Virus record (IMG/VR): IMGVR_UViG_3300032242_001694 | Source of the DNA: a virus | DNA: 64,000 nt | Reading direction: 5' to 3' (one strand) | Part shown: piece after piece, positions 4,601-51,525 of the stretch | Layout of the letters: each line of letters opens with the position of its first letter | How positions within the stretch are numbered: the first letter of the stretch is position 1 | The notes under the pieces: model-generated | Databases searched by the model: none | Seen by the model: the letters and a program-made list of their open reading frames with translations, nothing else | What the model was told of the DNA's origin: nothing | Program-made: the position numbers and the translations under genes

Positions 4601-6630
4601 AGATTTGTAGAATCATTAGCAGTGAGCGTTGCAACATTAGATGACAAGCCAGCTGTAGTCTGGTAATTAGACAAGTTACCAGACAACTGGGCATTAGAGA
4701 CTACATTAGCAGCGGAAACACTTCCAACGAAAGAAGTGTTATTAGCAGTCAGTGTAGCTACATTGCTAGACAGTCCGGCTGTAGTTTGGTAGCTTGACAA
4801 GTTACCTGTTAGCTGAGCATTAGAAACAACATTAGTAGCTGAAACACTTCCAACAAAAGAAGTGTTGTTAGCAGTGAGCGTTGCAACATTGCTTGATAGT
4901 CCAGCCGTGGTTTGGTAGTTACTAAGGTTACCAGATAACTGGGCATTAGATACTACATTAGCAGCGGACACCGATCCAACAAAGCTTGTATTATTGGAAG
5001 TTAAAGTAGCTACATTAGAAGATAATCCAGCAGTAGTCTGGTAGTTACTAAGGTTGCTAGACAGCTGAGCATTTGACACAACATTAGCTGCAGAAACTGA
5101 ACCAACAAAAGAAGTGTTGTTAGCAGTGAGCGTTGCAACATTAGATAACAAGCCAGCTGTAGTCTGGTAATTAGACAAGTTACCAGACAGCTGTGCATTA
5201 GACACAACGTTAGACGCATCAATCGATCCAACAAATGAAGTATTGTTGGATGTTGCATTGAAAAAAGTGGTGTTTATAGTCGAGTAAACTGTAGTATTGC
5301 CAATATAGATCGTGTTGGCTTGGAAATTAGCGATATGGAATGTAGTGTTTGTCTGATCAATATACTGAGACGCATCAGGCTCTGGCAGATAGTTGTCGAA
5401 AACTTTCCAAGTTCCAGAAGCGTGATCTCTAAAGAACCCAGCATGGTGGTAAGTGCCATCATTATAGTTAGCTGCAAAACCAAGATCGGGATTTGAAAAT
5501 GTAGAATTAGAATTCAGATAAATCATGTTATCTGAGATTGATAGATTATTTGCCCCAATAACTTCTACGTTGCCGGTGATAATAAGGCTCTTCACTGAAA
5601 CGTTGCCGGTGAACGTGGCAGTTGTTGCTGTTACAGACGTTGCATTTACTGTTCCGCTGTAGTTTGGAAGATAAGATGCGATGTTTGCATTTAATCCAGC
5701 AGTAGTCTGGTAATTAGATAAGTTAGAAGAAAGCTGACTTGTGTTTACGTATGACTTGCCATCGACGTATGAAGTTGCATTGCTGTAGGCCGTGGCGGCA
5801 TTTGAAGTTATAGCGGTGTTAACGGTAACTATTCTACCGTCGGTGTAGGCAGCTGCATTGCTATAAGCGGTAGCAGCGTTAGAAGTTATAGCCGTGTTGA
5901 CTGTACCAATTCTAGTATCGGTGTATGCAGTAGCGTTGCTGTAAGCAGTAGCTGCATTAGATGTTATAGCGCCATTGACTGTGCTGATCTTAATATCAAC
6001 GTATGAAGTTGCATTGCTATACGCGGTTGCAGCATTACTGGTTATAGCAGTGTTGACTGTACCAATTCTAGTATCTGTATAAGCAGTAGCGTTGGAATAT
6101 GCCGTAGCAACATTTCCAGTCATCAATGTCGTATTGCTGTACAGAGAAAGATTACTAGAGAGCTGAGCATTAGAAACGACATTAGCAGCCGAAACGCTCC
6201 CGACAAACAGGGCGTTATTGGCTCTTCCGGTGTATGCCGTTGAGTTGATTGTAGCGTTGACGGTGCTATTGCCGTATGTTACCGTGTTGGTAAACGTATG
6301 GGTATTTGTCCAAGTGTATCTCGCAGCCGAGTTAACGCTGCCGCCACCGCCGCCACTTACCGCAAGCCAAGAACCATTTGCGTTTAAGAAATAACTGTCA
6401 GCTGCCTGTTGGTCTGCGGTTGGAGCTGCAAATGAATATGTTACCGTAGAATTTGCAAGAGACAGTGAAGTTGAATTAATCGTCGCATTGACGGTTGAGT
6501 TGCCAGTAAATATCGTATTGCTTAAGCCAATCGTAGGAGTATTAGATGTGGTTACAGTTTCTCCGGCATCAGTGTTTCCACTTGCCTGCAAAACCATATT
6601 ATTGTCGTCTAAGAAAAGAATACCCTGCAT
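1615..6630 (-). CDS. Long repetitive fibre/adhesin-like virion protein (1671 aa)
   Basis: 22 tandem 26-aa repeats in three blocks, five 42-aa repeats, a duplicated ~100-aa domain and a beta-rich C-terminus. Confidence 0.8.
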   Translation of the reverse strand: MQGILFLDDNNMVLQASGNTDAGETVTTSNTPTIGLSNTIFTGNSTVNATINSTSLSLANSTVTYSFAAPTADQQAADSYFLNANGSWLAVSGGGGGSVNSAARYTWTNTHTFTNTVTYGNSTVNATINSTAYTGRANNALFVGSVSAANVVSNAQLSSNLSLYSNTTLMTGNVATAYSNATAYTDTRIGTVNTAITSNAATAYSNATSYVDIKISTVNGAITSNAATAYSNATAYTDTRIGTVNTAITSNAATAYSNAAAYTDGRIVTVNTAITSNAATAYSNATSYVDGKSYVNTSQLSSNLSNYQTTAGLNANIASYLPNYSGTVNATSVTATTATFTGNVSVKSLIITGNVEVIGANNLSISDNMIYLNSNSTFSNPDLGFAANYNDGTYHHAGFFRDHASGTWKVFDNYLPEPDASQYIDQTNTTFHIANFQANTIYIGNTTVYSTINTTFFNATSNNTSFVGSIDASNVVSNAQLSGNLSNYQTTAGLLSNVATLTANNTSFVGSVSAANVVSNAQLSSNLSNYQTTAGLSSNVATLTSNNTSFVGSVSAANVVSNAQLSGNLSNYQTTAGLSSNVATLTANNTSFVGSVSATNVVSNAQLTGNLSSYQTTAGLSSNVATLTANNTSFVGSVSAANVVSNAQLSGNLSNYQTTAGLSSNVATLTANDSTNLGGTAASSYALKTYADDKASNAYSNATSYVDTKIGTVNTAITSNAATAYSNATSYTDTKIGTVNTAITSNAATAYSNAVSYVDTKIGTVNTAITSNAATAYSNAVSYVDTKIGTVNTAITSNAATAYSNATSYADIKAANAYSNATLFANTAAATAYSNATSYTDTKIGTVNTAITSNAATAYSNATSYVDTKIGTVNTAITSNAATAYSNATSYADTKAATSYSNATTYTDTRIGTVNTAITSNAATAYSNATTYVDTRIITVNTAITSNAATAYSNSVTYTDTKIGTVNTAITSNAATAYSNATTYVDTRIITVNTAITSNAATAYSNATSYTDTRIATANSAITSNAATAYSNAASYTDTRISTVNTAITGNAATAYSNATSYVDGRSFVNTSQLSSNLANYALLSNGINSFTGNVSANNANTINDLLVGRNLTVSGNVTIQGNLTVSGNLVTLNVQSLSVKDNMIYLNSNSDVANPDLGFAGNYNDGTYHHAGFFRDASDGTFKVFDNYLPEPDASPYIDKTNTTFHIANFQANTIYVGNTTVYSTINSTFFNATSNNTSFVGSVSAANVVSNAQLSSNLSLYSNTALMTANVATAYSNATSYVDTKIATVNTAITSNAATAYSNAVTYVDTRIATVNSAITSNAATAYSNATTYVDTRIITVNTAITSNAATAYSNATTYTDTRIGTVNTAITSNAATAYSNATTYTDTRIGTVNTAITSNAATAYSNATTYTDTRIGTVNTAITSNAATAYSNATSYVDGKSYVNTNQLSTNLANYALLTGALFSGSINAVSYTTGTTGTGTGGLIANVTTLFVGNNTVNAYLNTIGLNVNAVTIANTTGVYTGIVNAASHTVGTTFTANATLVNTAAINITGQTNTTTLYVTTSANVGTAFTANSSLVNAIAINIVNQTNTATLYVTTSANVGTNIIANSSQLTVTANLAVNGVIIANGSAGSAGQILFTSGTAANTYWGTTITAGQVYATAAGFNLI
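2310..6105 (-). repeat. Intragenic 78-bp (26-aa) tandem repeats in three blocks (~2310-2810, ~3440-4545, ~5765-6105)
   Basis: Consensus TAYSNATSY(T/V)DT(K/R)IGTVNTAITSNAA; 6, 12 and 4 full copies; synonymous positions differ between copies. Confidence 0.9.
4619..5248 (-). repeat. Intragenic 126-bp (42-aa) tandem repeat, 5 copies
   Basis: NNTSFVGSVSAANVVSNAQLSGNLSNYQTTAGLSSNVATLTA x5. Confidence 0.9.
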
Positions 6631-6648
6631 CTAAAATCCTAAAAAAAT

Positions 6649-6725
6649 TGGCGACCCCTGCACGACTCGAACGTGCGGCCTACAGATTAGAAGTCTGTTG
6701 CTCTATCCAGCTGAGCTAAGGGGCC
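6649..6725 (-). tRNA. tRNA-Arg(UCU)
   Basis: GGCCCCTTAGCTCAGCTGGATAGAGCAACAGACTTCTAATCTGTAGGCCGCACGTTCGAGTCGTGCAGGGGTCGCCA; anticodon stem ACAGA/TCTGT with loop CT-TCT-AA; encoded CCA. Confidence 0.97.
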
Positions 6726-6785
6726 TATTCTTTGGATCAATCCGTAATATATATCAGCTTCAAAATGTCATATTAAAAAGAACTT

Positions 6786-7101
6786 GTGGGGAGATTCTGT
6801 TTCTAAGCTCTCCCCGAGCTCATATTACTTATTTCTTTTCGGCAAATGCCTTGATGGCTTCAGCCAAAGCAAAGATCTCTTCTTCATCTGGATATGCGGG
6901 ATACACTCCAGCGAACCCATCTTCTTTTCTAATTACTGCTTCATTGAATTTAGCGTGGTAGCCATTCTGCAGTTGCTCGCGCGCAGCCATGTAATATTGA
7001 AAGCGCATTTCGTAAGGTGTAGCTGTCATAGTTAGTTCCTTTCTGTGTGTGTTGTGTGTAGTAGTGGGGAGATTCTGTTTCCAAGCTCTCCCCGAGCTCA
7101 T
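6786..7101. repeat. 38-bp direct repeat (6786-6823 and 7064-7101) flanking a small gene
   Basis: GTGGGGAGATTCTGTTTC(T/C)AAGCTCTCCCCGAGCTCAT, one mismatch; forms a GGGGAGA/TCTCCCC hairpin; second copy is the 3' end of the tmRNA gene. Confidence 0.92.
6829..7029 (-). CDS. Small conserved T4-like phage protein (PYE.R...YP..EEI..A family)
   Basis: Likely start MTATPYEMR at 7029, with RBS AAGGA after a CA-rich leader. Confidence 0.7.
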   Translation of the reverse strand: MTATPYEMRFQYYMAAREQLQNGYHAKFNEAVIRKEDGFAGVYPAYPDEEEIFALAEAIKAFAEKK

Positions 7102-23410: not shown

Positions 23411-23800
23411 TCAGCTGTTTCCTTTCTCTGGGTTTCTAAACTTTAAGTCGATGGAGTCAACTACTCGTAGTGTACCGATCTCAGCACCTTCATCGGTGAA
23501 TACGCTATTGGCCAGCTCGGTGAATGGATGCTCCATGCCGTGATACTTACAAAGAAGAGCCCTCACCGCCTCAACGATGAAAGCTCCGTCTTTAATGTAT
23601 GCGTCTTCCTGATCTTCCTCGATGCCGAAGTCAAAGGCTGCTGCCTCGAGTTGAGTGAATAGCTGTGGAATCACGTTGGCCAATGTCTCGTTGATGTGAT
23701 AGTGCTTGAGGAACGACATGCGGTCGTCGACTTCAGACTCGTCTAACGGGATAAACTTAGTGTTTGAGTTACTCTTTGGAAACTTTATGACGTTGTCCAT
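23411..23800 (-). CDS. Hypothetical protein
   Basis: MDNVIKFP start; preceded by TTGACA at 23839-23844. Confidence 0.65.
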   Translation of the reverse strand: MDNVIKFPKSNSNTKFIPLDESEVDDRMSFLKHYHINETLANVIPQLFTQLEAAAFDFGIEEDQEDAYIKDGAFIVEAVRALLCKYHGMEHPFTELANSVFTDEGAEIGTLRVVDSIDLKFRNPEKGNS

Positions 23801-23853: not shown

Positions 23854-24846
23854 TTATGCGTTGTCGCTTGCCAGAACGGTAGAGCCCTCGGTGGTGAACT
23901 TAAAGTCGTACACCTTGCACTGTGTATTGCACTCTAGATCGTTGATTAGTCCTGCTCTTTTGTCCTGTGGTACGTAGAACACGAAGAACCCGCCACCACC
24001 TGCACCGAGAAGCTTACCACCTAGAGCTCCAGCTTTCATTGCGCAAGTATAGACTTCGTCGAAGTAGTCGCTGGTGATCTCCTTGACGATACTCTTCTTA
24101 TCCATCCACGCATCGTTGAGCAGGGCACCGAATGAATCTACGTCGCGATCGATCAGGTGACCCAGCGCAATGTAAGCCTTATCGCGACTTCTCTTCACAA
24201 GATTTAACTTATCTTTATCACTCATCGCAGCGCTCTGCTTCTGCAGGATGCTGTTGGCCGAACGACCGATCCCGCTGTACACGAGTAGCAGGTTGTTCTC
24301 GAGTAGCTTCAGCGTGAACGGATCAATCTTGGATGTGTCGTACAGTATTACCTGATCTTTAGCGAACTGGAACAGGTTGACTCCACCCCAAGCAGCTGCG
24401 TACTGGTCCTGCTTACCAACGGGATACCCACACTTCTCCATCTCAATCATGCACGCGCACTCGGCGAGCTGACTCTTGTTTGGCCTGATGCCCGAGTAGC
24501 TCGAGAGCGCGTTGACGAGTCCGACTGTAAATGCAGATGAAGACCCCAGTCCCGATCCCTTGGACAAGATGTCCGAGATGGATGAGACAGTGATCTCCTT
24601 GTTGATCTGAAAGTACTTGAGCGTCTCGCTCGTGATACCGCTCTGCATTGTCTCTACGTCCGGAAACTCCTCGATCTGGTCATACATGACCTTGACACCC
24701 ATGTGCTTGGTCTTATGCAGCATAACGTAGATGTACTTGTCGATCGTGACTGACAGGGCAGCACCGAGATCATCTTTATAAAACGACGGCATGTCACTGC
24801 CGCCGGAGAAGAAGCTGATGCGAACTGGTGTGCGGGTGATGATCAT
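23854..24846 (-). CDS. hddA: GHMP kinase, HddA-like heptose-7-phosphate 1-kinase
   Basis: TP.RISF..GGSD, GSGLGSSS, GKQDQY, GGKLLGAGGGG. Confidence 0.85.
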   Translation of the reverse strand: MIITRTPVRISFFSGGSDMPSFYKDDLGAALSVTIDKYIYVMLHKTKHMGVKVMYDQIEEFPDVETMQSGITSETLKYFQINKEITVSSISDILSKGSGLGSSSAFTVGLVNALSSYSGIRPNKSQLAECACMIEMEKCGYPVGKQDQYAAAWGGVNLFQFAKDQVILYDTSKIDPFTLKLLENNLLLVYSGIGRSANSILQKQSAAMSDKDKLNLVKRSRDKAYIALGHLIDRDVDSFGALLNDAWMDKKSIVKEITSDYFDEVYTCAMKAGALGGKLLGAGGGGFFVFYVPQDKRAGLINDLECNTQCKVYDFKFTTEGSTVLASDNA

Positions 24847-25844
24847 GTCTTATACCTAAACATCTCTACTGGTTTCTTGCGCGACTCTACGTCTGGATAA
24901 TTTTTGAGCATAGAGCTGAGTAGAGTCTCCCACTTAGACTTGATGCGATCGATGTTGTAGCGACTATCCACGAAGAACTTATTGAACCGGATAACTTCCT
25001 CACTCTTCTTAGTCTCTACCATATGGATCGCTGCTTCGAGGTGACGAGCAAAGATGTTGGCGTGCTCGTTCTTGTTGTTAAAGTCACCCTGATACATGAT
25101 GTTGAGAGCTCCTGAAGTCTCAGGAAGTGCGCCAAAGTTAGGATGCACGCACAACAAGCCAGCAGACATAGCCTCAAGCATTGCGCGACAGCTGGTCTCT
25201 AGCCAGATGCTGGGATACGCGTGGATGTGAGCTGTGTTAAGGTAAGACTTGAGATCGTCGTTGGGTACGAACCCGTGATAAGTCATCTGAGGATGACTGC
25301 GAATCTCGTCGTAGAGTGGCTCGAACTGTTCATCAGCTTGATCCCAGCCATAGATCTTAAAGCTTGAGAACACGTCGAGATGAATGTTGGGATACTTCTC
25401 AGCCAGATGCTTGAACACTGGCACCAGCAGCTCCAGCCCACGCTGCGGAGTAGACGTATAGCAGATGTGGATCTTACCGTCGTAGTCTTTCTGCAGACAG
25501 CTATTAGGAGCTGGCTCGATACCAGACTCAAGGATGATAGACTTATTGTCGTAAGGCAAGCCGTGAACTAGCTGGTAGCGCTGGTACTGCCAGTCAGAAA
25601 TGAACACGAACTTGTGGATGCTGTCGATAAAGTTCTTATCTTGAAACTTCTTGCTCTCCGGATCTTCAGGTAGATCGTGACACCAGAATAGCCTGATCTT
25701 ATCTTCTTCAAACTCGCGATGGCGAGACGAGATGATCTGGAAGTTCTCGAGTAACTTCGGGTCAATGATCTGTGCTAGCTTTCTCTTCGCAATCTCCGTA
25801 CCGCCGAACGCGTTCTTGGAGATCTCATTCTCTTCAAAACTCAT
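24843..25844 (-). CDS. GT-B glycosyltransferase
   Basis: GGTE, YTSTPQRGL, YPS.W.ETSC..MLEA, GALPET. Confidence 0.85.
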   Translation of the reverse strand: MSFEENEISKNAFGGTEIAKRKLAQIIDPKLLENFQIISSRHREFEEDKIRLFWCHDLPEDPESKKFQDKNFIDSIHKFVFISDWQYQRYQLVHGLPYDNKSIILESGIEPAPNSCLQKDYDGKIHICYTSTPQRGLELLVPVFKHLAEKYPNIHLDVFSSFKIYGWDQADEQFEPLYDEIRSHPQMTYHGFVPNDDLKSYLNTAHIHAYPSIWLETSCRAMLEAMSAGLLCVHPNFGALPETSGALNIMYQGDFNNKNEHANIFARHLEAAIHMVETKKSEEVIRFNKFFVDSRYNIDRIKSKWETLLSSMLKNYPDVESRKKPVEMFRYKT

Positions 25845-26575
25845 ATTGTAAATCCACTCTTGGTTGCATCATTGAAGAACATCTTACACGTATCGAGAGA
25901 GAACTCATTCAAGTCTTTGCCGAGTATGTCAAGCTTCTTGATCAAGTCTGGAGTCATCGTGATGATGTCTGCTCCAACCCTCTCTGCCTGAATATAATTA
26001 TATGATTCACGAGGTGATGCCCAGAGTAACTCAACATTGTAAAGCATGTCCGAGTCGTGCTGCAACAAGCGATAAGCTTTAGCATCTTCAAACACTTCGA
26101 TAGGATCTACACCAGCGTCTGCAATGCGACCGGCAAAGATTGAGATGATTGATGGTACTTTTGGATTTAAGTTGGCGAGTGTAGTGATTACTTGAGCAAC
26201 TGTGAACACAGCCGTTACGTTGAGCTTGACGCCTTCATGACTGAGATGCTTAATGACTTGACTCGTGTAAAGCCCATTAGTGAACATGATTGGGATCTTT
26301 ACATAGATCGGGTAATTGTACTTACTGGACCACTCATGTATCTTGAGAGCCTGATCTACCATTCCGTAGTGGTCGTCTGCAAAGACCTCAAAGCTAATAC
26401 ACGTATCAGGTCGAGTAGTTGACAAAAAGTCCAGCACTTTGTGTGCGAACTCACCATAGTCAGTCACTCCTGCTTGTCGCATCAAAGTTGGGTTGGTAGT
26501 AAATCCCGTGATTTGTGAGTTTTGAGATGCTTTAACAATACCGTCAAAGTCTGCGCCATCAGCGAACAGCTTCAT
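25841..26575 (-). CDS. tal: Transaldolase (TalC-like)
   Basis: Start MKLFADGA at 26575; GFTTNPTL, YVKIP, NVTA.F, FAGRI.D, WASPRE. Confidence 0.9.
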   Translation of the reverse strand: MKLFADGADFDGIVKASQNSQITGFTTNPTLMRQAGVTDYGEFAHKVLDFLSTTRPDTCISFEVFADDHYGMVDQALKIHEWSSKYNYPIYVKIPIMFTNGLYTSQVIKHLSHEGVKLNVTAVFTVAQVITTLANLNPKVPSIISIFAGRIADAGVDPIEVFEDAKAYRLLQHDSDMLYNVELLWASPRESYNYIQAERVGADIITMTPDLIKKLDILGKDLNEFSLDTCKMFFNDATKSGFTI

Positions 26576-27083
26576 TATATAACTCCTTAATGATTTCACA
26601 TGCGTGTAGTATATTAGCAGCGTAGTAGTCTGGCTCTTTATCAAGAGGCTGGCCACCGATGTAGATAGTCTTTACACCAGCAGCTCTACCAGCCTCAATG
26701 TCTTTCCATGAATCGCCGATCATAAAGCTCTTACTCTTATCGACTGAGTAGTAGTTGGTGAGCTCGTTAATCATACCTGGATTAGGCTTGTAAAGCTCAG
26801 AACCTCTGCGACAAGCGCAGAGGTAATCGTCGATCTTTAGATCTCTCTTGATCTTTAGCATGATCTTAGACAAGTCGTCAAATGTCATCTTAAAGTCAAG
26901 AGCGTCTGGCTGATTTGTGACTATAAAAGTATTATATCCAAGTTCTTTAACTATGTCAATAGCTTTGTTGACGTCCGGTAGATACTCAAACTCTTCAAGC
27001 TTCCAAGGAGGTAGCTTAACACCATCCCTGTCAATCATCTTGTTGATGACGCCGTCGCGATCAAAGAATATAGCTTTTACCAT
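26559..27083 (-). CDS. gmhB: Heptose-1,7-bisphosphate phosphatase (HAD)
   Basis: FFDRDGVIN, VTNQ, KP.PGM, MIGDS..D..AG. Confidence 0.88.
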   Translation of the reverse strand: MVKAIFFDRDGVINKMIDRDGVKLPPWKLEEFEYLPDVNKAIDIVKELGYNTFIVTNQPDALDFKMTFDDLSKIMLKIKRDLKIDDYLCACRRGSELYKPNPGMINELTNYYSVDKSKSFMIGDSWKDIEAGRAAGVKTIYIGGQPLDKEPDYYAANILHACEIIKELYNEAVR

Positions 27084-27664
27084 TTTGTCTTCTTGATCTG
27101 GAGCTTAGGATGAGATACTACGCAGTGCCACACTACTGCTTGAAAAGCTTCGCTGTGTGGAGTAACTCTTTTAGGTGACAGCTCAGGAACTACCACTGCG
27201 ACGTCAGAGTGTAAAGCAGCGTAGCCGTTCTTCTTGCCAACGATACAAACTACTGTGCCGTCCATTTCACGAGCTTCTTTAATAGCTTCAATTAAGTTAA
27301 CAGACACATTCTTCTGTTCGTCACCACCACCCACTGACAAGATAAAGATGGCGTCATTGTGACGAAACTTGCTTACGTTTAGATACTCTCGGAAGACTGT
27401 GTCAAAGCCTTCATCGTTTGTGCGAGCAGTGAGTTCGCTAACATTATCTGTGGGAGCATAAGCCTCAATCCCACAGAGCTTGCGTAGATCATTGACGAGA
27501 TGGGAAGCATTGCCAGCTGAACCGCCGACACCAAGTACAAACACTCGGCCGTCGGTAACGTCTCGGACTTTGACAAGTGCATTGACCAGTTCCTCTACTT
27601 TGTTTTTGTCGATAGCATTAGCAATATCAATTACTTCGTTGAAGTACTCATTAGCAAAACTCAT
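27077..27664 (-). CDS. gmhA: Phosphoheptose isomerase (SIS domain)
   Basis: G.GGSA.NASH..NDL.K, TA..ND.G. Confidence 0.85.
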   Translation of the reverse strand: MSFANEYFNEVIDIANAIDKNKVEELVNALVKVRDVTDGRVFVLGVGGSAGNASHLVNDLRKLCGIEAYAPTDNVSELTARTNDEGFDTVFREYLNVSKFRHNDAIFILSVGGGDEQKNVSVNLIEAIKEAREMDGTVVCIVGKKNGYAALHSDVAVVVPELSPKRVTPHSEAFQAVVWHCVVSHPKLQIKKTKW

Positions 27665-28062
27665 TTCAATCGTCCTCTCAGTTCACTCGAGCTATAACTA
27701 TGCGCGCGATGGTTGAATACTATATTTATGCCGCGGATGTCGCAGATGGATTGTCCGGTAATCTTATCATTAAAGTGATCGGCACCAACAAACCGTGTAT
27801 TGATCTCAAGAGTTCCCATCATATTTACGAGATCTTTCTCGGTATCGTATGGGATGATCTCATCTACAAACTTGCAGGCGTTGAGCTGCATCCATCTTTC
27901 ATAGATCGTTTGAATAGGCTTATTCTTCTCTGGCCTGTCGATAGTTGGGTCGCTGTGTAGTCCAACTATTAGATAATCACATTCTTTCTTACACTCAGCA
28001 AGCATTGCAAGATGACCTGGATGTAGTAGGTCAAAAGCCCCGCATGTAAATCCCACGTTCAT
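27661..28062 (-). CDS. HIGH-superfamily sugar-phosphate nucleotidyltransferase (TagD/RfaE-II-like)
   Basis: GAFDLLHPGH, KNKP, ER, SSSELR. Confidence 0.85.
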   Translation of the reverse strand: MNVGFTCGAFDLLHPGHLAMLAECKKECDYLIVGLHSDPTIDRPEKNKPIQTIYERWMQLNACKFVDEIIPYDTEKDLVNMMGTLEINTRFVGADHFNDKITGQSICDIRGINIVFNHRAHSYSSSELRGRLK

Positions 28063-28619
28063 TACTTAATCCTAAATGTTCTAGCCTCACCGTGTCGACG
28101 TCCTAAAAGCTCTACCTCAAAGCCGGTATCATTGAGGAACTCGAGAAAAGCCTTGAACTCATGATTCTCATAACCAGGATAGTCCATGAACTCGTCGAAT
28201 GCAATTACAGTTCCAGAGCGAATACGCTTCTTAAGCTTCTGCAAGATACAAGCAGCTGCTGAGTAGATATCTACATCGATATGGATGAAAGACACTGGGC
28301 CTTTATTAGCTTTTAGAAAGCCATCAATTGTATCTTCGATGAGACCGACTACCAAGACTACATTGTCTTTTACAGTTGGCACCTCACACTTGAAAGATCC
28401 TTTGCCGATGCTAGGTCGCCAATCTTCAGGTAATCCTTCAAACGAGTCAAAACCATAGACCTTGTCTGTTGTATGCTCAGCAATTTCATTGATAGTTCTA
28501 CCACTGGCAACTCCAAACTCAATGATCATACCTTTAGCTTTGCAGAACTGAAGCATCTGCTCAAAGCCGTGAGGATCATAGTTGGAGTTGGCTAGAGCGT
28601 AGAGTTCTTCAGACGTCAT
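28062..28619 (-). CDS. TylF/MycF-like SAM O-methyltransferase
   Basis: EFGV.SG, GFDSFEGLPEDW, HIDVDIY, FDE. Confidence 0.8.
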   Translation of the reverse strand: MTSEELYALANSNYDPHGFEQMLQFCKAKGMIIEFGVASGRTINEIAEHTTDKVYGFDSFEGLPEDWRPSIGKGSFKCEVPTVKDNVVLVVGLIEDTIDGFLKANKGPVSFIHIDVDIYSAAACILQKLKKRIRSGTVIAFDEFMDYPGYENHEFKAFLEFLNDTGFEVELLGRRHGEARTFRIK

Positions 28620-29434
28620 TTGATCACCATGTAAGTGTTCTTGCCATCGGCAACAGTTTCGTTGTGCAAGAAGAACTCTGGATTGCGATCGGCAAACTTC
28701 TCTTTAAAGTAGTCTTCGTTGTTGATCGTGCCAAAGATCTTAGCCTGATACATAAGCAGCCAGTTAGTAGAGTCGACGATGCGTTCCATGATTGTCTCAC
28801 GGAAGTCAATCGGGATCTCACTGAGTGACCAAGTAGCGATTACCAGATCTGCTTTCTCAAGCTCTGACGGCTCAGTTGCGAAGTTACATGCGATGTCTTG
28901 CTTCTCCAGATAGTAGCGCTGGACGTTCTGTACTTCTGGGAAGTCGTAGATCGTGTACTTGCCGGTGAAGCCCATGTCATGAACTACCGAGCACATGTCA
29001 CCGTAGCCTCCACCGATCTCAACGATGCTCTTGTATCCCTGCAGCATCTCAGGAGTAAATCCGCAGATGGCAAGGTGAGCTACGTTTTGAACGCGCTGCA
29101 TGCTTGTGTCGAAGTCGTCTGCTACTTTAAGAAATCCATTCTGAGACTCAGGAATACCGATCCAGTTCTCGCGAAGCGCGTAGGCTACCTTCTCATCCTT
29201 CATCGCTGCGTCGAATGCAGCACCAAGGAAACGAGCTACTCGGCCAGTAGTTACAAGCGGTACGTTGTGAACTGATGCCCAGAGGCGGAAGCGAGAGAGT
29301 GGCAAGGTGGCTGTGTCGTGCTCGAACACCTTGCGCATGGTTGGCCAGTACTCTGGTCCATTTACCTGTTTAGCCTTGATCTGCGTCTGAGACATCTCTG
29401 ACTCATGATTAAAGTCGGACCAAATATAATTCAT
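28616..29434 (-). CDS. Putative sugar O-methyltransferase
   Basis: VEIGGGYG, YD.PE...QRYYL, ATWSLSE; start MNYIW after GGAG. Confidence 0.75.
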   Translation of the reverse strand: MNYIWSDFNHESEMSQTQIKAKQVNGPEYWPTMRKVFEHDTATLPLSRFRLWASVHNVPLVTTGRVARFLGAAFDAAMKDEKVAYALRENWIGIPESQNGFLKVADDFDTSMQRVQNVAHLAICGFTPEMLQGYKSIVEIGGGYGDMCSVVHDMGFTGKYTIYDFPEVQNVQRYYLEKQDIACNFATEPSELEKADLVIATWSLSEIPIDFRETIMERIVDSTNWLLMYQAKIFGTINNEDYFKEKFADRNPEFFLHNETVADGKNTYMVIK

Positions 29435-29449
29435 AACAAAAGTCTCCAA

Positions 29450-29818
29450 TTATTGCGGGCTAGGAGCTTGGCGCTCTAGGAATGCAGTGTTGTAAGTCGT
29501 TGCCTTGAAGTGCTTCTGAACAAGACTGATAACAGTCTCAGGATCAAAAGTCTTACAGGAAAACACGTCGAGATAGACATGGTCATGCTCGTTAACGAAG
29601 TGAGCGCAGATGTTACTGGTCTCGATAAGCTGTACTAGGGTGTACCCAGCCTTATTACCACTACCAAAATTTACAATTTGTGGTTCGCCATAAGCAACCA
29701 TGTCGATCTCAACGACAAGTTCTTTGACAAACGCATAGATGGTGTCATAGCTGGTGATCGCTTCGTGATCACAGCCGCCGGAATCGAGAATTAAGTGATA
29801 GCCCCAGTAGTCGCTCAT
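29450..29818 (-). CDS. speD: S-adenosylmethionine decarboxylase-like pyruvoyl proenzyme
   Basis: G.HLILD, GYT..QLIETSNI.AH, Y.DVFSCK.F. Confidence 0.85.
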   Translation of the reverse strand: MSDYWGYHLILDSGGCDHEAITSYDTIYAFVKELVVEIDMVAYGEPQIVNFGSGNKAGYTLVQLIETSNICAHFVNEHDHVYLDVFSCKTFDPETVISLVQKHFKATTYNTAFLERQAPSPQ

Positions 29819-29858
29819 TTCATGTATGCTCCTTTAGCGTTGAACGGTGTGTTATTTA

Positions 29859-30134
29859 TTAGAATCCATCAACGATTTCTGCGTACTCAACTGAGTCAAC
29901 GCGGAACGACCGCCAAGCATTCTTTTGGAGATCCCACACTGCGATAGTCTCTTGGTTCTCAGGACGCTTGTGTGCTTCCTCAAGAGCTACTTTGTTTGTC
30001 TGTGGTGGGAGGTTCTCAGGAAGGAGCGTGCAGATCATCTCACGCTTTTCTCCATTGACTTTTGTAAAGTGGATCTTACAAGTGTGGAGCTTTAGATCTT
30101 GCAGAAGGGTATCTCGGTTCACATAAGTTTGCAT
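29859..30134 (-). CDS. SH3/WYL_2-like small protein
   Basis: FTKVNGE.R.M.CTL ... VWDL....WRSF. Confidence 0.75.
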   Translation of the reverse strand: MQTYVNRDTLLQDLKLHTCKIHFTKVNGEKREMICTLLPENLPPQTNKVALEEAHKRPENQETIAVWDLQKNAWRSFRVDSVEYAEIVDGF

Positions 30135-30426: not shown

Positions 30427-30534
30427 AGTCCTATTATAACCTCTCTTGCCAATATTTGTCAACATCTATTTTAGATTCCGGATCATATCCGTGCATTACC
30501 ATATCAATGCTTATCAAATGTTCTAGTAACATAT

Positions 30535-35959: not shown

Positions 35960-38238
35960 GCTTCGCAGTCCTCGTCGTCTGTTTCACCAATGGCGAGTGG
36001 AGTACCAACTTCCAACTCACCGGCTCCGTCGTTCGTGTTAAAGTAGTAAAGTTGCTTACCTCCATACTTATAGAACATTAACAGGTGTTGAAGCATAGTC
36101 GACAGGGGGATCTGTTCTTCTGGATAGAACTTAGGATTGTAGCTGGTGTTTACCGAGATACCCTGATCGATAAACTTCTGCAGGACTGCGCAGATCTTGA
36201 GATAGCCCTCGGGCGACTTTTGGTCCCAAAGTAGATCGTACTTCTTCTTAAGCTTTCTGACTTCTGGAACAACCTGCTTGAGAACGCCGTCTTTACTCTG
36301 CTTAACAGAGACCAGAGATCTCGGAGGCTCAATGCCATTGGTTGAGTTACTGATCTGAGCAGAGGTTTCCGCTGGCATGAGAGCCATAAGCGTGGAATTA
36401 CGGGTGCCATAAGTCTGAGCCTTTGTTCTAAGTGACTCCCAATCCATCTTATAGACTGGAGCTACGAGCTCGTCTACTTCTTTCTTATAGGTGTCGATCG
36501 GGAACTGACCGTGGTAGTACTTGGTCTCATTGGCTTTCGAGATCATGCCCTTCTCTTCTGCCAAGTCGATCGATGCCTTGATAAGGTAGTACGACCATGC
36601 CTCGGCATACTCATGTAGTTTTACTAGTCCATCATGATCAATTGACTGATAGCTAATATCATTGCGAGCCAACCAATAAGCGAGGTTAATAATACCGACA
36701 CCAAGAGGTCTTCTGGCCATAGTGGAGTTTCTGGCAGCAAGAACTGGATAATCTTGATAATCAAGTAACTCGTCCAAAGCACGAACAATAAGAGTACAAG
36801 GCTTTGCAAAGTCATTAGGATCACGGATCTTACCCCAGTTAATAGCAGCCAGAGTGCAGAGCGAGATCTCTCCGTCTGGATCATGCAGGTCGTTGAGTGG
36901 CTTGGTTGGTAGGTCAATTTCAGAGCATAGGTTAGACTGGCGAATAGGAGCCAACTCTTTAACAAAGGCTCCATGGTCATTCGCATGGTCAACGTTCATC
37001 AGATAGATTCGACCAGTATTCTTTCTCTCTTCCATGAAAGCAGAGAAGACGTCTATCGCGGGAAGCGACTTCTTGCGGATTTTTGTAGAGCGCTCAGCTT
37101 TTTCGTAAAGCTCACGGAACTTATCTGTGTTGGTGAAAAACGACTCATACAAGTCAGGAACATCTGACGGCGAGAAAAGTGTAATCTGTCCGCCAGAAAG
37201 CAACCTTTCGTACATAACTTTATTGAATTGGACTCCATAGTCAAGGTGTCTGACACGATTATCCTCCGTTCCTTTATTATTCTTTAATACCAAAAGCTCT
37301 TCTACTTCGAGGTGCCAAATAGGATAGTAAAGAGTCGCCGCGCCTCCGCGTACTCCTCCTTGAGAGCAGCTTTTAACGGCAGACTGGAAATGCTTATAGA
37401 ACGGAACAACGCCGGTATGAGACGCATCACCGCTCCTGATAGGAGAACCAATAGCGCGAATGGACCCAGCACCAATCCCAATACCAGCTTTTTGGCTAAC
37501 GTACTTAACGATTGCGGAGCTAGTTGCATTGATTGAGTCAAGCGAGTCTGCAGTCTCAATAAGAACACATGAACTGAACTGCTTTTGAGGAGTACGTAGA
37601 CCTGCCATGATAGGAGTTGGAAGCGAAATTTCGAAATTAGATACTGCATCGTAAAAGTCTTTTACCCACTTTAGTCTGTCTTCTTTATAGTTTCTAAACA
37701 ACACCATCGCGATAAGCATAAAAGCCATCTGGGGTGTCTCATAGTACTTATTAGCTACTCTATTCTTTACAAGATACTTGCCCCGAAACTGTTCCATCCC
37801 AGCATAAGTAAGGTTAAAATCGCGTTTATGGTCCAGAGAACTATTAAGATATTCAAGAGATTGATCATCGTACCAGACAAGAATGTTCGGGTCGTAGTAT
37901 CCTGCTGATACGACTTTTCTAATATGATTACCAAGAGAATCAGGATTAAAATTTCCATATACTTCTTTCCTCAGATTATAATTGATAAGATTACCAGCAA
38001 CATACTGATAATTAGGAGTATCTTCGCCGATAAGCTCAGCGGCAGCCTTGATAAGGGTCTCTTGGATCTCGGTAGTCTTAATACCGTTGTAGAACTGTAT
38101 GTGAGAGTTTAGCTCAATCTGAGACTCAGAAACACCGTTGATATTCTCACATGCCCATGCGACGACTTTATGAAACTTATTGAGGTTTAGTAACTCTTTT
38201 GAACCATCCCTCTTTACTACCTGAATCGTCGCCATCAT
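35947..38238 (-). CDS. nrdA: Ribonucleotide reductase class Ia alpha subunit
   Basis: ATP-cone VVKRDG, SSCVLI, SNLCSEI, C-terminal CEAC. Confidence 0.97.
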   Translation of the reverse strand: MMATIQVVKRDGSKELLNLNKFHKVVAWACENINGVSESQIELNSHIQFYNGIKTTEIQETLIKAAAELIGEDTPNYQYVAGNLINYNLRKEVYGNFNPDSLGNHIRKVVSAGYYDPNILVWYDDQSLEYLNSSLDHKRDFNLTYAGMEQFRGKYLVKNRVANKYYETPQMAFMLIAMVLFRNYKEDRLKWVKDFYDAVSNFEISLPTPIMAGLRTPQKQFSSCVLIETADSLDSINATSSAIVKYVSQKAGIGIGAGSIRAIGSPIRSGDASHTGVVPFYKHFQSAVKSCSQGGVRGGAATLYYPIWHLEVEELLVLKNNKGTEDNRVRHLDYGVQFNKVMYERLLSGGQITLFSPSDVPDLYESFFTNTDKFRELYEKAERSTKIRKKSLPAIDVFSAFMEERKNTGRIYLMNVDHANDHGAFVKELAPIRQSNLCSEIDLPTKPLNDLHDPDGEISLCTLAAINWGKIRDPNDFAKPCTLIVRALDELLDYQDYPVLAARNSTMARRPLGVGIINLAYWLARNDISYQSIDHDGLVKLHEYAEAWSYYLIKASIDLAEEKGMISKANETKYYHGQFPIDTYKKEVDELVAPVYKMDWESLRTKAQTYGTRNSTLMALMPAETSAQISNSTNGIEPPRSLVSVKQSKDGVLKQVVPEVRKLKKKYDLLWDQKSPEGYLKICAVLQKFIDQGISVNTSYNPKFYPEEQIPLSTMLQHLLMFYKYGGKQLYYFNTNDGAGELEVGTPLAIGETDDEDCEACKI

Positions 38239-39250
38239 TCTTTTCTACTCCTACCATATTTTCTTTAAATGTTTTCCAAACGGCTACCCATGAATACCTA
38301 TCTATAGTATACAAAAAACAAGCATTTCTGTCAACCGTTAAAGAATTCTTAATAGCAACATTTAGATCTTCGTGGATGTAACCGTTAACTCCGTTTACAA
38401 TAATATCAATTGGTCCAGTTACAGGATACGCAGCGACCGGAGTTCCCATCGTTTGAGCTTCTATGTTTACCACTCCAAACGTATCATTCTTGCTTGGAAA
38501 TACAAAACAGTCTGCCGCAGCATATTCCGCCGCAAGCTCTTTACCTACGAGAGCTCCAGTGAATCTTACTTTTGGATACTTTAACTTTAATTCTTTTAAG
38601 TACGGGCCATCACCGACCACAGTAAGATTATATAGGTAAGATGACAGCTGGCAAAAGGCGTCTAGATTCTTTTCTTTGCTAATTCTATTAACTGTCAACA
38701 AGTTTCTTGGCGAGATGAATATGTTTTTATTAGAAGTTAATCTCGGCGGACCAAAGATACTGGTGTCTACTCCTCGAGACCAGCTAATGTGTGTCTTGCC
38801 GATTTTGTGGTCATTCAAATAATCTATCATAGATTGAGAAGTGCAGAAGACGATCTTGTTCTTGTGGAATCTTCTCAGCCAAGAGTTTGTCCAGCTTACC
38901 GGAACGTGTAAGATGCTCTGTAGAAACTCTCCCCACTTGGTATGAAAAGCGGTGGTAAAGTTTAGATTTCTCTTGCTGCAGTAGAACAGAGCTGCGATTC
39001 CCAACACGCCTTCTGTGGCTATGTGGATGAAGTCGGGCTTGAAGTTGTCTATGATCTTGTTAAAGCCGAGTGGTATCGAGATCTTTACGTCTGGATATAT
39101 CCAAGAGCTAAAATTGCGAAAGAGAGAAGGCTCCACGATAAGTACCTCGTACCCATCTCTCTCAGCTTCTTTCTTTATGTTCTTAAGCGTGGTTACTACG
39201 CCGTTGATTGATGGCTCGTAACAGTCTGTAACTATGAGGATCTTTTGCAT
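38177..39250 (-). CDS. GT4 glycosyltransferase, Agt-like diacylglycerol glycosyltransferase
   Basis: KILIVTD...P.INGVVTTL, HIATEG.LG, TT.FHTK, WSRGVD, FVFPS..DTFG.V..EA, PVAAYPV.GP. Confidence 0.8.
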   Translation of the reverse strand: MQKILIVTDCYEPSINGVVTTLKNIKKEAERDGYEVLIVEPSLFRNFSSWIYPDVKISIPLGFNKIIDNFKPDFIHIATEGVLGIAALFYCSKRNLNFTTAFHTKWGEFLQSILHVPVSWTNSWLRRFHKNKIVFCTSQSMIDYLNDHKIGKTHISWSRGVDTSIFGPPRLTSNKNIFISPRNLLTVNRISKEKNLDAFCQLSSYLYNLTVVGDGPYLKELKLKYPKVRFTGALVGKELAAEYAAADCFVFPSKNDTFGVVNIEAQTMGTPVAAYPVTGPIDIIVNGVNGYIHEDLNVAIKNSLTVDRNACFLYTIDRYSWVAVWKTFKENMVGVEKNDGDDSGSKEGWFKRVTKPQ

Positions 39251-39405
39251 TCGGACACAACTTTAAATCTATCAAACTTCAGCTGGTATTCCATAGAGCT
39301 CTTAGCTTTAAGACACTGTTGCTCCGTATCAAATTTTATAGTCACCCATCCGGGTCTGTCTTCTGGGTTATTAACGTGAACCGCTATCAGTATCAGTATC
39401 CACAT
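39232..39405 (-). CDS. Small hypothetical protein
   Basis: MWILILIAV... after GGAGG; overlaps both neighbours. Confidence 0.55.
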   Translation of the reverse strand: MWILILIAVHVNNPEDRPGWVTIKFDTEQQCLKAKSSMEYQLKFDRFKVVSECKRSS

Positions 39406-40147
39406 CGCTCTGCCTCCAATGAATGATTTCAAACTTTCCATCCATAGTCTCAACCAAAGCTGTGCAAGACTCTACCCAGTCACCACAGTTCATGTACTCT
39501 ACATCTTCTATAATAGAAATATTAGCCGAATGAATATGCCCGCAGATAACACCATCAACGTGTTTAATACGAGCGTAATGTGCGAGAGAATGTTCATAGT
39601 TGCCTATAAAGTTTACTGCTTCTTTTACTTTCTGCTTAGCCCACTTAGACAATGACCAATAAGGAAGTCTGAGATAAGATCTAGCCCAGTGCAGTCCCGT
39701 GTTAATATTTAGGAGCAGTGAGTACGCCCAGTCGCCGACATGTGCAAGCCACTTCATATTCATGGTAACTAAGTCAAACTTGTCTCCATGAATGACTACG
39801 TACTTCTTGCCATTTAATGCTTCATAAACGATCTCATCGTGAAGCTCTACACTTCCAAAGTTATGCTCTAGAAATTGACGCATGAACTCGTCGTGATTAC
39901 CCGGAAGATAGATGATCCTCGTGCCTTTGCGAGACAGTCTGAGAATCTTCTGTATTACAGTCGAGTGTTCCTGTGGCCAGTACCAGCCTTTCTTGAGTCT
40001 CCAACCATCAAATATATCTCCAACGAGAAACAAGTTATCACACTCAATATCTTTTAAGAAAGATAGTAAAACTTCAGCTTTGCTTCCTCTAGTACCCAAA
40101 TGTATATCAGAAATAAATATAGACCTGTAATGATTGTTTTCTGTCAT
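39371..40147 (-). CDS. plcP: PlcP-type metallophosphoesterase (phospholipase C; often annotated as LpxH-like)
   Basis: SDIHLG, GDI.DGW, W.WPQ.H, PGNHD (His rather than the Arg of LpxH GNRD), HGD.FD, YWSLSKW.K, CGHIH, N.GDWVESCTA. Confidence 0.8.
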   Translation of the reverse strand: MTENNHYRSIFISDIHLGTRGSKAEVLLSFLKDIECDNLFLVGDIFDGWRLKKGWYWPQEHSTVIQKILRLSRKGTRIIYLPGNHDEFMRQFLEHNFGSVELHDEIVYEALNGKKYVVIHGDKFDLVTMNMKWLAHVGDWAYSLLLNINTGLHWARSYLRLPYWSLSKWAKQKVKEAVNFIGNYEHSLAHYARIKHVDGVICGHIHSANISIIEDVEYMNCGDWVESCTALVETMDGKFEIIHWRQSDVDTDTDSGSR

Positions 40148-40156
40148 GAATTTCTC

Positions 40157-40164
40157 TATAAATA
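40157..40164 (+). promoter_or_regulatory. T4-type late promoter
   Basis: TATAAATA upstream of the only + strand genes. Confidence 0.7.
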
Positions 40165-40272
40165 TTAACGCTCGGACCAATTACTTATAGTCTTGAGAGT
40201 GTCAGACATGATTGATCTCGCTTTATTTTATGTTTTTATTTTACTTTAAAAACAATAGAGAAAGAGATTCTT

Positions 40273-50162: not shown

Positions 50163-50600
50163 TTACGCCTTAGTTACTGACCTAAGCATCCAATCATGCT
50201 TATAGTGTCTATCGATTCTATCCTGTAAGAAGTTGGCTAGACCAACTGCGTTCTCTTTCTCAGCAAGCTTTTGAGTCTCTTTGAGGATCACGATGATCTT
50301 CATGTTGTCTTCTTTAAGCTTTGAAGCCATAGAAAGAGCTGATGGAATATTTATCTCATCTTTAACTACAGAGTCTTCCATGTAGCGAACAAAAGAACCT
50401 GGAGCGTACGCACCCAGAGTCCTAATCTCCTCAGCAATAGGGTCTACCGCTGAGAAGTACTCTTGATACAAGTCACCAAAGAAGTCGTGGAACATTGGAA
50501 ATGTTGGTCCCTCAACGTTCCAGTGGAAGTTGTGTGCCTTGAGGTAGATGGCGAAGGTACTCGCCAACACAACCTTCATCTTTGATACTAGCTCTTCCAT
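50163..50600 (-). CDS. dps: Dps / mini-ferritin
   Basis: K.HNFHWNV.G..F...H, D.IAE.IR.LG, H.K..WML. Confidence 0.92.
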
Positions 50601-50908: not shown

Positions 50909-51525
50909 TCTCCCTTATAATGTTTCATATTACCCGATGGATCCACGTGAAATGCGTTGAAGTGGACGTCAGGATGGTCTCTTCTCATATTTAGGAAAGC
51001 ATCTAGGTTCGGCTTACTGTCGTCGTACATGCTTACTTTCTTGTATCCGTGCTTCTTAATGTGATCAGAAATAACACTTGCTTTCTTCTCAGCCGGCGAA
51101 GCGCTTCCAGCTATATTACCCACGCGGTGAACGTGGATGCTATTCATGTCCATTCCCTGCCTGCGGAACGTGTCAAGGAACTTATCCTTGTTGTCAAAGT
51201 CAGCTCGAGCAGTCAAGAGATGGACCTTGCTTCCTGGATGCCTGCCGATGTTCTGCTGGATCCTATTGACCCTGTTAATCATGCTTGGAATCGGCTTAGA
51301 CTCTTTGTCAAACTTCTCTGCGTTCTTAAACTCTGAGTAGTCATATGTGTGTCCAGCTGGAAGCCTGTGGGTATTGTACTCGCTGTTTGATAGTCTCTTA
51401 ACAACTTTACCTGAAGGATCCTTGACACCAATCTGAGCAGTGGTGTGCATGAGGGTGTCGTCGATGTCAACGTAGTGAGCGTGACCTCTTCTCTGCTCTT
51501 CAAGGAATCTTCTAAAGCTAATCAT
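50905..51525 (-). CDS. HAD-superfamily phosphatase with IP-like N-terminus
   Basis: DIDDTL, LTAR, K, YDDS..N; starts MISFRRFLEE. Confidence 0.78.
   Translation of the reverse strand: MISFRRFLEEQRRGHAHYVDIDDTLMHTTAQIGVKDPSGKVVKRLSNSEYNTHRLPAGHTYDYSEFKNAEKFDKESKPIPSMINRVNRIQQNIGRHPGSKVHLLTARADFDNKDKFLDTFRRQGMDMNSIHVHRVGNIAGSASPAEKKASVISDHIKKHGYKKVSMYDDSKPNLDAFLNMRRDHPDVHFNAFHVDPSGNMKHYKGE

Follow-up and report, generated by a model that had tools for sequence, protein, structure and literature searches.

A nine-gene cassette of T4-like phages with a predicted pathway to an activated, O-methylated heptose and its transfer by a GT4-type glycosyltransferase

The IMG/VR virus record IMGVR_UViG_3300032242_001694, analyzed here over a stretch of 64,000 nucleotides (the window), carries at positions 23854-29818 nine co-directional open reading frames (ORFs) on the minus strand, which abut or mostly overlap. 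Here it is proposed, on a narrow balance of probability and by comparison of sequences, that this cassette encodes an early, self-sufficient pathway to a nucleotide-activated, O-methylated glycero-manno-heptose, together with the transfer of that sugar. A previous sequence-only reading had described a contiguous cluster of nine genes with their families, and all nine are present at these positions on the minus strand, with Pfam, NCBIfam, and PHROGs profiles in agreement. The pathway logic of that reading (transaldolase, GmhA, HddA, GmhB, nucleotidyltransferase, glycosyltransferase, and methyltransferases) likewise agrees with the assigned families and with a synteny that is conserved and translationally coupled. 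From gene content, motifs, synteny, the absence of an alternative transferase, and the fold of the glycosyltransferase, we infer substrates, anomer, nucleotide, timing, and acceptor.

In the proposed pathway, the transaldolase would produce sedoheptulose-7-phosphate from fructose-6-phosphate and erythrose-4-phosphate, which the GmhA-like isomerase would convert to heptose-7-phosphate, the HddA/WcbL-type GHMP kinase to the alpha-1,7-bisphosphate, and the GmhB-like phosphatase to alpha-heptose-1-phosphate. A small HxGH nucleotidyltransferase, and no HddC-type enzyme, would then form the nucleoside diphosphate (NDP)-alpha-heptose, from which a retaining GT4 would transfer the sugar as an alpha-heptoside, with the accessory methyltransferases O-methylating it before or after transfer.

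Relatives were obtained from a profile scan of IMG/VR, which gave 185 stretches encoding the kinase, and 80 loci were fetched. The presence of the cassette genes was counted over 31 distinct loci or contigs spanning the slot (using tblastn for methyltransferase B), motif conservation was checked over 41-46 homologues per enzyme, and families were assigned with Pfam, NCBIfam, and PHROGs profiles, PDB matches, and Foldseek on predicted models. The core of GmhA, GmhB, transaldolase, GT4, and HddA genes, with overlapping start and stop codons, was found in all 31 distinct related phage contigs; the AdoMet_dc-like gene was present in 30, the nucleotidyltransferase in 29, methyltransferase A in 10, and methyltransferase B in 7. 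The core is therefore considered fixed and the methyltransferases accessory tailoring genes. Contigs of 74 kb and 141 kb have the same gene order, in which Grx and WYL_2 precede the cassette and a gene of 125-132 amino acids, RNase H, DUF6433, and PhoH follow it. The arrangement is not due to chance, since the same cassette occupies the same slot in 31 distinct contigs. As a variant, in the relative L012 (6592-8965) the genes for the transaldolase and a divergent GT4 (48% identity) are separated by those for an SDR, a Gfo/Idh/MocA oxidoreductase, and a TylF-type methyltransferase; these three are typical NDP-sugar tailoring enzymes and suggest a further tailored sugar.

The HddA/WcbL-type GHMP sugar-7-phosphate 1-kinase (23854-24846, minus strand) matched WcbL (4usm, 6e-40), the HddA of C. 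jejuni (4n3o, 4e-36), and 3k85 (6e-35) in the PDB, and it aligns end to end with WcbL, the C. jejuni HddA, and a Bacteroides homologue. The GHMP glycine-serine loop is readable in the translation and conserved among homologues, and by these features the enzyme belongs to the GHMP heptokinase family; its score on NF049969 (156 bits, cut-off 600) is below the equivalog level. No PfkB-family heptose-7-phosphate kinase was found in the cassette, of which the GHMP enzyme is the sole kinase. The GmhA-like SIS ketose-phosphate isomerase (27077-27664, minus strand; PF13580, SIS_2) had only phosphoheptose isomerases among its PDB matches (13 of 13), with scores of 49-53 bits on the NCBIfam GmhA models, under cut-off, and an Asp at the position of Glu65 of GmhA. 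The GmhB-like HAD-IIIA phosphatase (26559-27083, minus strand) has GmhB as its best family, with 79 bits on NF006506 and 71 bits on NF050049, both below cut-off, and its motifs DxDG, TNQ, KP, and GDxxxD are conserved across homologues. The isomerase and phosphatase thus reach a quarter to half of the GmhA and GmhB cut-offs, with the catalytic motifs kept. These isomerase, GHMP kinase, and HAD-IIIA phosphatase families are the ones shared with the HddA/HddC (alpha) route, whose WcbL/HddA enzymes are matched by the kinase at 1e-36 to 1e-40. Viral heptose biosynthesis enzymes (HBEs) had already been reported, and the phosphatase, which is present in this cassette, was absent from viruses in the survey by Tang et al. 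(2024; via PMC11573728 and PMC11461863).

The transaldolase gene is located at 25841-26575 on the minus strand (with the ORF call extending to 26656), and its start is almost certainly the ATG at 26575, giving 244 amino acids as in the relatives, rather than the GTG at 26656. Its motifs DGAD, TTNPTL, and VKIP, the last including the Schiff-base lysine, are conserved. The sequence-only reading had regarded this enzyme as a supplier of precursor and not as an auxiliary metabolic gene of the cyanophage type. This role is supported by the location of the gene between gmhB and the glycosyltransferase gene in 31 of 31 relatives, by its TIGR02134 type (273 bits, cut-off 282), and by its identity of only 35% to the cyanophage talC.

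The proposed activator of the sugar-1-phosphate is a CTP_transf_like nucleotidyltransferase of 133 amino acids (27661-28062, minus strand; PF01467), in which the HxGH signature reads HPGH. Among the NCBIfam models, rfaE_dom_II scored 71 bits (cut-off 181) versus 49 bits for TagD, and the per-domain PDB scores of ethanolamine-phosphate cytidylyltransferase (ECT, 41 bits), HldC (38 bits), and TagD (37 bits) do not discriminate among them. The C-terminal motif R-x-H-x-[YW]-S-[ST]-[ST] is found across 39 family members. In comparison with the HddA/HddC route, this enzyme takes the place of the PF00483 guanylyltransferase, and the cassette adds the transaldolase, the methyltransferases, and the GT4. 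An HddC-type PF00483 gene was searched for and not found in the nine cassette genes, in the complete relative G001 (167.8 kb, with terminal repeats), or in G002, G003, G004, and G006, and the single PF01467 gene of G001 and of G002 is the nucleotidyltransferase of the cassette itself. The unusual pairing pointed out earlier, an HddA-type kinase with a HIGH-family transferase instead of HddC, is therefore real and conserved.

GHMP kinases yield alpha-1-phosphates. Because the glycosyltransferase is in addition a retaining GT4, an alpha-linked NDP-sugar would be an internally consistent product, one that needs a specificity new for this fold. The enzymes for NDP-beta-heptose (HldE or HldA with HldC, the "HENases") share with the cassette transferase the cytidylyltransferase-like fold and the best score, rfaE_dom_II; however, they act with a PfkB kinase, in place of which a GHMP kinase is present here, and their (F/L)xxGxSTT motif is not found in the cassette transferase. 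The literature was searched for GHMP kinase, heptose, and cytidylyltransferase in combination, and nothing was found. A role of phage enzymes with the cytidylyltransferase fold in heptose activation has precedent, having been described for a metagenomic phage set (bioRxiv 10.1101/2023.12.21.572611) and by Tang et al. (2024; via PMC11573728 and PMC11461863).

Annotated phage heptose clusters are on record (PMC7378029, PMC7029224), and those of Caulobacter phage Cr30 and cyanophage SynMITS9220M01, known by annotation only (PMC7378029), are the ones compared here. Cr30 has Grx, an epimerase, the GT4 orthologue (41.5% identity), an HddA-like kinase (40%), GmhA, and a TagD-like transferase (46%) of the same clade as that of the cassette, located ~5.5 kb from the GT4-HddA-GmhA genes, provided that the linear record is joined end to end. 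SynMITS9220M01 has a glycosyltransferase, an HddA-like kinase, GmhA, a HAD-transferase fusion, and an HldD-like epimerase. The fusion, SynMITS9220M01_206 (L002:16052-16804; annotated as hypothetical), consists of an N-terminal HAD phosphatase and a nucleotidyltransferase of the same clade, and its gene comes after those of the kinase and GmhA and before that of the epimerase. No transaldolase, cassette-type GmhB, or methyltransferases were found in the fetched loci of these two phages.

Several observations weigh against the proposed heptose pathway. All the pathway enzymes are divergent and remain under the NCBIfam equivalog cut-offs; therefore, their families are secure and their substrates are not. 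To our knowledge, no bacterial heptose pathway needs a dedicated transaldolase, whereas the lincosamide octose pathway does, and the characterized HIGH-family heptose transferases that we know of all use the beta anomer. The cassette transferase lacks both the (F/L)xxGxSTT motif of heptose transferases and the R at position 5 that marks promiscuous members, as these are defined by Tang et al. (2024; via PMC11573728 and PMC11461863). Its R-x-H-x-[YW]-S-S-S resembles the RTEGISTT signature of cytidylyltransferases more, although a clean RTEGISTT is not present. Two relatives, L051 (7002-7185) and L086 (7115-7179), keep the full cassette without the nucleotidyltransferase, having 64-180 nt between the AdoMet_dc-like gene and gmhA, and neither PF01467 nor PF00483 was found in a search of a 95-kb record of this transferase-less subgroup. 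Finally, the nearest transferase homologues of cultured phages (Vibrio pv27 and Acinetobacter Ab1-TPeters; 50-55% identity) are solitary, with no heptose genes beside them.

The transaldolase also admits a different product, in which it would move a C3 unit onto ribose-5-phosphate to give octulose-8-phosphate, which would be isomerized, 1-phosphorylated, 8-dephosphorylated, and activated, following the logic of lincosamide biosynthesis. Such an octose is considered unlikely. The lincosamide GDP-octose pathway (LmbR transaldolase, LmbN isomerase, LmbP kinase, LmbK phosphatase, LmbO transferase) is parallel to the cassette in gene content, and the lmb/ccb clusters hold transaldolase, isomerase, phosphatase, and transferase genes toward GDP-octose; the kinase LmbP is also part of the pathway. 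As far as we know, it is the only characterized pathway that joins a dedicated transaldolase with an isomerase, a GHMP kinase, a phosphatase, and a transferase. It differs in that its product is a C8 sugar, GDP-activated by an HddC-like enzyme, for an antibiotic of Streptomyces. An octose would account for a transaldolase that is invariant (31 of 31) and translationally coupled in the phages, although no known heptose pathway requires one, and for isomerase, kinase, and phosphatase scores far under the heptose-enzyme equivalog cut-offs; ribose-5-phosphate, it is assumed, is plentiful in an infected cell making nucleotides. On the other hand, the transaldolase is nearly an equivalog of the housekeeping TIGR02134 (273 of 282 bits), the isomerase, kinase, and phosphatase each match heptose enzymes best, and the clusters of Cr30 and the cyanophage, with the same kinase, isomerase, and transferase clades, do without a transaldolase.

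The transferase could instead be an accessory cytidylyltransferase, making, for example, CDP-glycerol or CDP-ethanolamine for a further decoration, while a host enzyme activates heptose-1-phosphate or this compound is used as such. This is judged improbable. It would agree with the loss of the gene in L051 and L086, which retain all the other steps, with the non-discriminating PDB scores (41/38/37 bits), with the R of the cytidylyltransferase signature at the start of the C-terminal motif, and with the solitary homologues in Vibrio and Acinetobacter phages; an amine-phosphate might, speculatively, come from the pyruvoyl decarboxylase paralog next to it. However, 29 of 31 relatives have the gene, which overlaps its neighbors; its product is the sole transferase, whatever the kind, of the complete relative; in the cyanophage heptose cluster, a member of its clade forms a fusion with a HAD phosphatase; rfaE_dom_II is its best NCBIfam match by 22 bits; and a GT4 normally needs an NDP-sugar. 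Activation of the heptose by the enzyme of the cassette is the preferred reading.

The retaining GT4-type GT-B glycosyltransferase (24843-25844, minus strand; PF00534, PF13692) has the E-x7-E motif (E216, E224), which is invariant among homologues. Its AlphaFold2 model has a pLDDT of 91.9, and the top 50 Foldseek matches are all GT4 enzymes (1e-10 to 1e-13), including the protein O-glycosyltransferases GtfA and SdgB; as judged from this model, it shares with the retaining GT4 family the GT-B fold, the E-x7-E, and the structural similarity. A retaining GT4 with E-x7-E is stereochemically consistent with an alpha-linked donor derived from the GHMP kinase. The family is acidic (pI 5.4-6.4; N-domain 5.4), which fits, weakly, a soluble or protein acceptor over DNA or a lipid-linked acceptor. 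A second GT4 of the window, adjoining a metallophosphoesterase (38177-40180) downstream of nrdA, is separate from the heptose cassette.

Orthologues of this glycosyltransferase (36-43% identity) are encoded by the cultured T4-like phages DLP6 (Stenotrophomonas), Cr30, the Sinorhizobium phages phiM12, phiM7, phiM19, and phiN3, a Rhizobium phage, and an Ochrobactrum phage. The gene order of phiM12 is Grx, DUF2693/WYL_2, the glycosyltransferase (108348-109295), two unknown genes, rnh, and phoH, with no sugar pathway. In DLP6, the gene (117973-118926) comes after Grx, near a methyltransferase and a GT-A, and in Cr30 the gene at 4525-5508 is annotated as "family 2" and is actually GT4-like. The published descriptions of phages DLP6 and phiM9 offered no usable information about DNA modification or this glycosyltransferase. 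Since T4-like phages that infect Alpha- and Gammaproteobacteria, phiM12 and others, have orthologues between Grx and RNase H, the GT4 is the older resident, an ancestral occupant of this slot, to which the sugar pathway was added later, giving the clade of the phage studied here a private donor supply. In phages such as phiM12, the GT4 would use host donors, and in the clade with the cassette the phage would supply its own.

The cassette is preceded by a consensus sigma-70-type (early) promoter just upstream of grx (30433-30462, minus strand; TTGACA-18-TATAAT, 12 of 12 positions matching), and a second one, also with 12 of 12 positions, is located inside gmhB (26931-26959, minus strand; TTGACA-17-TATAAT), ~360 nt upstream of the transaldolase start. 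The estimated chance expectation of a perfect match in the 14-kb region is ~0.005. Near-consensus promoters recur upstream of grx or of the AdoMet_dc-like gene in relatives, and the gmhB-internal promoter has the same position relative to the transaldolase gene in L008 and L045. Because of the two perfect promoters and this recurrence, the cassette looks like part of an early unit, grx-WYL_2-cassette, that would be read by the host sigma-70. The true start of grx is likely the ATG at 30426, 6 nt from the -10 hexamer of its promoter, and the grx mRNA may be leaderless or have its start codon further downstream.

A late-like motif, AATAAATA, at 29853-29860 had been taken to favor decoration of the virion or surface. 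This motif, on the minus strand and overlapping the stop codon of the upstream gene, has 5 copies in the window versus 2.1 expected, which was judged not to be an enrichment, and it is upstream of the cassette in 3 of 32 distinct relatives. Being neither enriched nor conserved, it was rejected as a late promoter, and sigma-70 promoters were found instead, so the argument for decoration drawn from it does not hold. Decoration of capsid or tail proteins with a methyl-heptose late in infection, as in the glycosylated mycobacteriophages and the chlorovirus capsids, is accordingly a rather doubtful alternative. GtfA and SdgB among the Foldseek matches and an acidic, soluble glycosyltransferase would suit a protein acceptor, and the chlorovirus capsid protein carries methylated sugars; however, besides the scarcity of the late-type motif, consensus sigma-70 promoters drive the region, and the cassette is located among early nucleotide-metabolism genes, far from structural genes.

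The same early location, among nucleotide-metabolism and replication genes, would also suit DNA hypermodification, in which the NDP-heptose is the donor for hydroxymethyl-pyrimidines through the GT4 of the cassette or separate glycosyltransferases of a hydroxymethylcytosine (hmC) cluster, in parallel with the glucosyl-hmC of T4, the arabinosyl-5-hydroxycytosine (5hoC) of RB69 and DLP3, and heptosyl-5hmC. The arabinosyl-5hoC pathway follows a similar logic, with a SIS isomerase, a kinase, a GmhB-like phosphatase, a transferase, and a GT4-like glycosyltransferase. In the metagenomic phage set of contig 53, a HAD/APH-like bifunctional enzyme, a cytidylyltransferase, and a T4-betaGT-like GT-B place one or two heptoses on 5hmC (bioRxiv 10.1101/2023.12.21.572611). 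The likeness to contig 53, by description, comprises a phage phosphatase, a kinase, an enzyme of the cytidylyltransferase fold, and a GT-B acting on heptose; the differences are an APH-like kinase, a host isomerase, and a betaGT-like glycosyltransferase linked to 5hmC-forming enzymes in contig 53, versus a GHMP kinase, a phage isomerase and transaldolase, an acidic GT4, and methyltransferases here. Among the relatives, the complete G001 has a dCMP hydroxymethylase of the T4 gp42 type (3e-84), and six others encode a TET/JBP dioxygenase.

Against a DNA acceptor, the hydroxymethyl-base modules are swapped between relatives while the GT4 remains 65-72% identical, and these modules are located 20-90 kb from the cassette. 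The gp42 gene was found in one of ten relative records, with the search of the nine others giving none, and a link of the cassette to hmC was rejected on this count. The TET/JBP of G002 belongs to a complete amino-acid:DNA-transferase (ADDT) cluster for thymidine hypermodification (a P-loop kinase of the 5-hydroxymethyluracil-kinase type, GATase, and MazG), which needs no sugar. Phage gene sets for sugar hypermodification of DNA (T4 gp42 plus glycosyltransferases; 5mYOX/ThyA-homologue plus glycosyltransferase clusters) link the enzyme forming the hydroxymethyl- or hydroxy-pyrimidine to the glycosyltransferase; where they occur in relatives, the gp42 or TET/JBP genes are far from the cassette and have their own downstream enzymes. 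In addition, the GT4 family is acidic, unlike what is expected of a DNA-binding glycosyltransferase, and phiM12 has an orthologue at this slot with no sugar pathway around it; no O-methylated sugar on DNA is known to us. In the window, no enzyme forming hydroxymethyl- or hydroxy-pyrimidines was found, only ThyX being present in this respect. DNA as the target is consequently held to be improbable.

The two modification regions were also described in their own right. In G001, the region of 95-103 kb (L087/L092) contains the gp42-type hydroxymethylase with DUF1599, a dCMP deaminase, a protein with the uracil-DNA glycosylase (UDG) fold, and several ORFs of 300-390 amino acids; one of 354 amino acids near gp42 was considered as a T4 beta-glucosyltransferase on a 13-bit hint and rejected, with no Pfam or PDB support. 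In G002, the region of 41-56 kb (L093), as in others, has TET/JBP, GATase, a GNAT-like protein, ADDT, a P-loop nucleotide kinase, and MazG. As for the acceptor in the proposed pathway, the chances are about even that it is a target other than DNA within the infected cell, either soluble or a protein and not lipid-linked; a phage structural protein would be an outside candidate, and a DNA base a slightly poorer one.

The two methyltransferases had both been described as O-methyltransferases, which holds clearly for one of them. The TylF/Methyltransf_24-type O-methyltransferase B (28062-28619, minus strand) is above cut-off for PF13578 (35 bits) and PF05711 (26 bits), matches phrog_6608 at 1e-45, and belongs clearly to a sugar-O-methyltransferase family; in some relatives it is replaced by other TylF-type genes. 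The SAM-dependent methyltransferase A (28616-29449, minus strand; probable start at 29434) has a GxGxG motif and a weak, sub-cut-off O-methyltransferase signal (TIGR04371, NanM, 35 bits; PF00891, Methyltransf_2, 18 bits). Its model shows a class I methyltransferase fold with TM-scores of 0.36-0.43, the N-terminal 110 residues being poorly modelled, and this fold does not resolve the substrate.

The gene at the head of the cassette (29450-29818, minus strand; PF02675, 78 bits), of uncertain membership, had been read as speD. It encodes instead a divergent AdoMet_dc-like paralog, 29% identical to a canonical SpeD with which it coexists in the relative L007, which carries two AdoMet_dc genes (2045-2416 and 6441-6794). 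Compared with the canonical SpeD (class 1 AdoMet decarboxylase), Ser68, His73, and Cys88 are conserved, T-S replaces the canonical E-S cleavage site, and the downstream signature diverges from ESH...HTWPE. On TIGR03330, it scores 48 bits (cut-off 76), a phmmer search of the PDB gave no match, and the ESM Atlas gave viral AdoMet_dc clusters only. The paralog may be a pyruvoyl decarboxylase with another substrate. It is located directly upstream of the transferase or the methyltransferases in 30 of 31 relatives; since Grx and WYL_2 next to it keep their places just as constantly, its functional link to the cassette is uncertain.

The window is part of a T4-like myophage with all its large genes on the minus strand, and includes a gp43-type DNA polymerase (49% identical to cyanomyophage polymerases), UvsX, a DnaB-like helicase, a primase, NrdAB, ThyX, RNase H, PhoH, and exonucleases, the cassette being placed among these early nucleotide-metabolism and replication genes and distant from structural genes. 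Between the replication genes, there are also a ferritin-like gene (50163-50600) and an ADP-ribosyltransferase-like gene (51522-52322; PF03496). Downstream of the cassette, and excluded from it, a conserved gene of 129 amino acids (23411-23800) has its own promoter and an acidic, soluble product, for which a family match was sought and none was found. Relatives of the kinase are very numerous in the metagenome database, at ~60% identity, and the whole cassette was not found in cultured phages. Close bacterial relatives of the transferase and of the kinase were not found either: the single match in 185,579 species genomes is JBBARF010000123.1 (L091), a 10.7-kb contig of a Bacteriovoracaceae metagenome-assembled genome (MAG) with a phage-type kinase (63% identity); this contig is probably a piece of phage DNA that was binned with the MAG.

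Enzymes for NDP-heptose in phages, phage heptose clusters known by annotation, and phage DNA bearing heptose had all been recorded before; new is the complete, transaldolase-fed, GHMP-plus-HxGH, methylating cassette around an ancestral early GT4. In it, the whole route from central sugar phosphates to transfer is predicted to be phage-encoded, in a group represented by at least 185 viral contig stretches, and phage heptose genes are usually filed as lipopolysaccharide (LPS) auxiliary genes. The kinase and transferase form a pair that no characterized pathway combines. It is tentatively suggested that the activated sugar is neither GDP-alpha- nor ADP-beta-heptose, and that it may be an O-methylated NDP-alpha-heptose (or octose), made by an enzyme of the cytidylyltransferase fold whose anomeric specificity would be new, and used early by the ancestral GT4 on a non-DNA cellular or phage target, in a widespread clade of T4-like phages. 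The cultured Caulobacter phage Cr30, with its core of GT4, HddA, GmhA, and transferase, allows the question to be addressed directly. A product that proved to be a new nucleotide sugar would extend the known chemistry of sugar activation, and finding the acceptor would explain the conserved glycosyltransferase of the T4-like group of phiM12, DLP6, and Cr30. A non-standard sugar placed on a non-DNA target would, if true, be a new kind of phage takeover chemistry.

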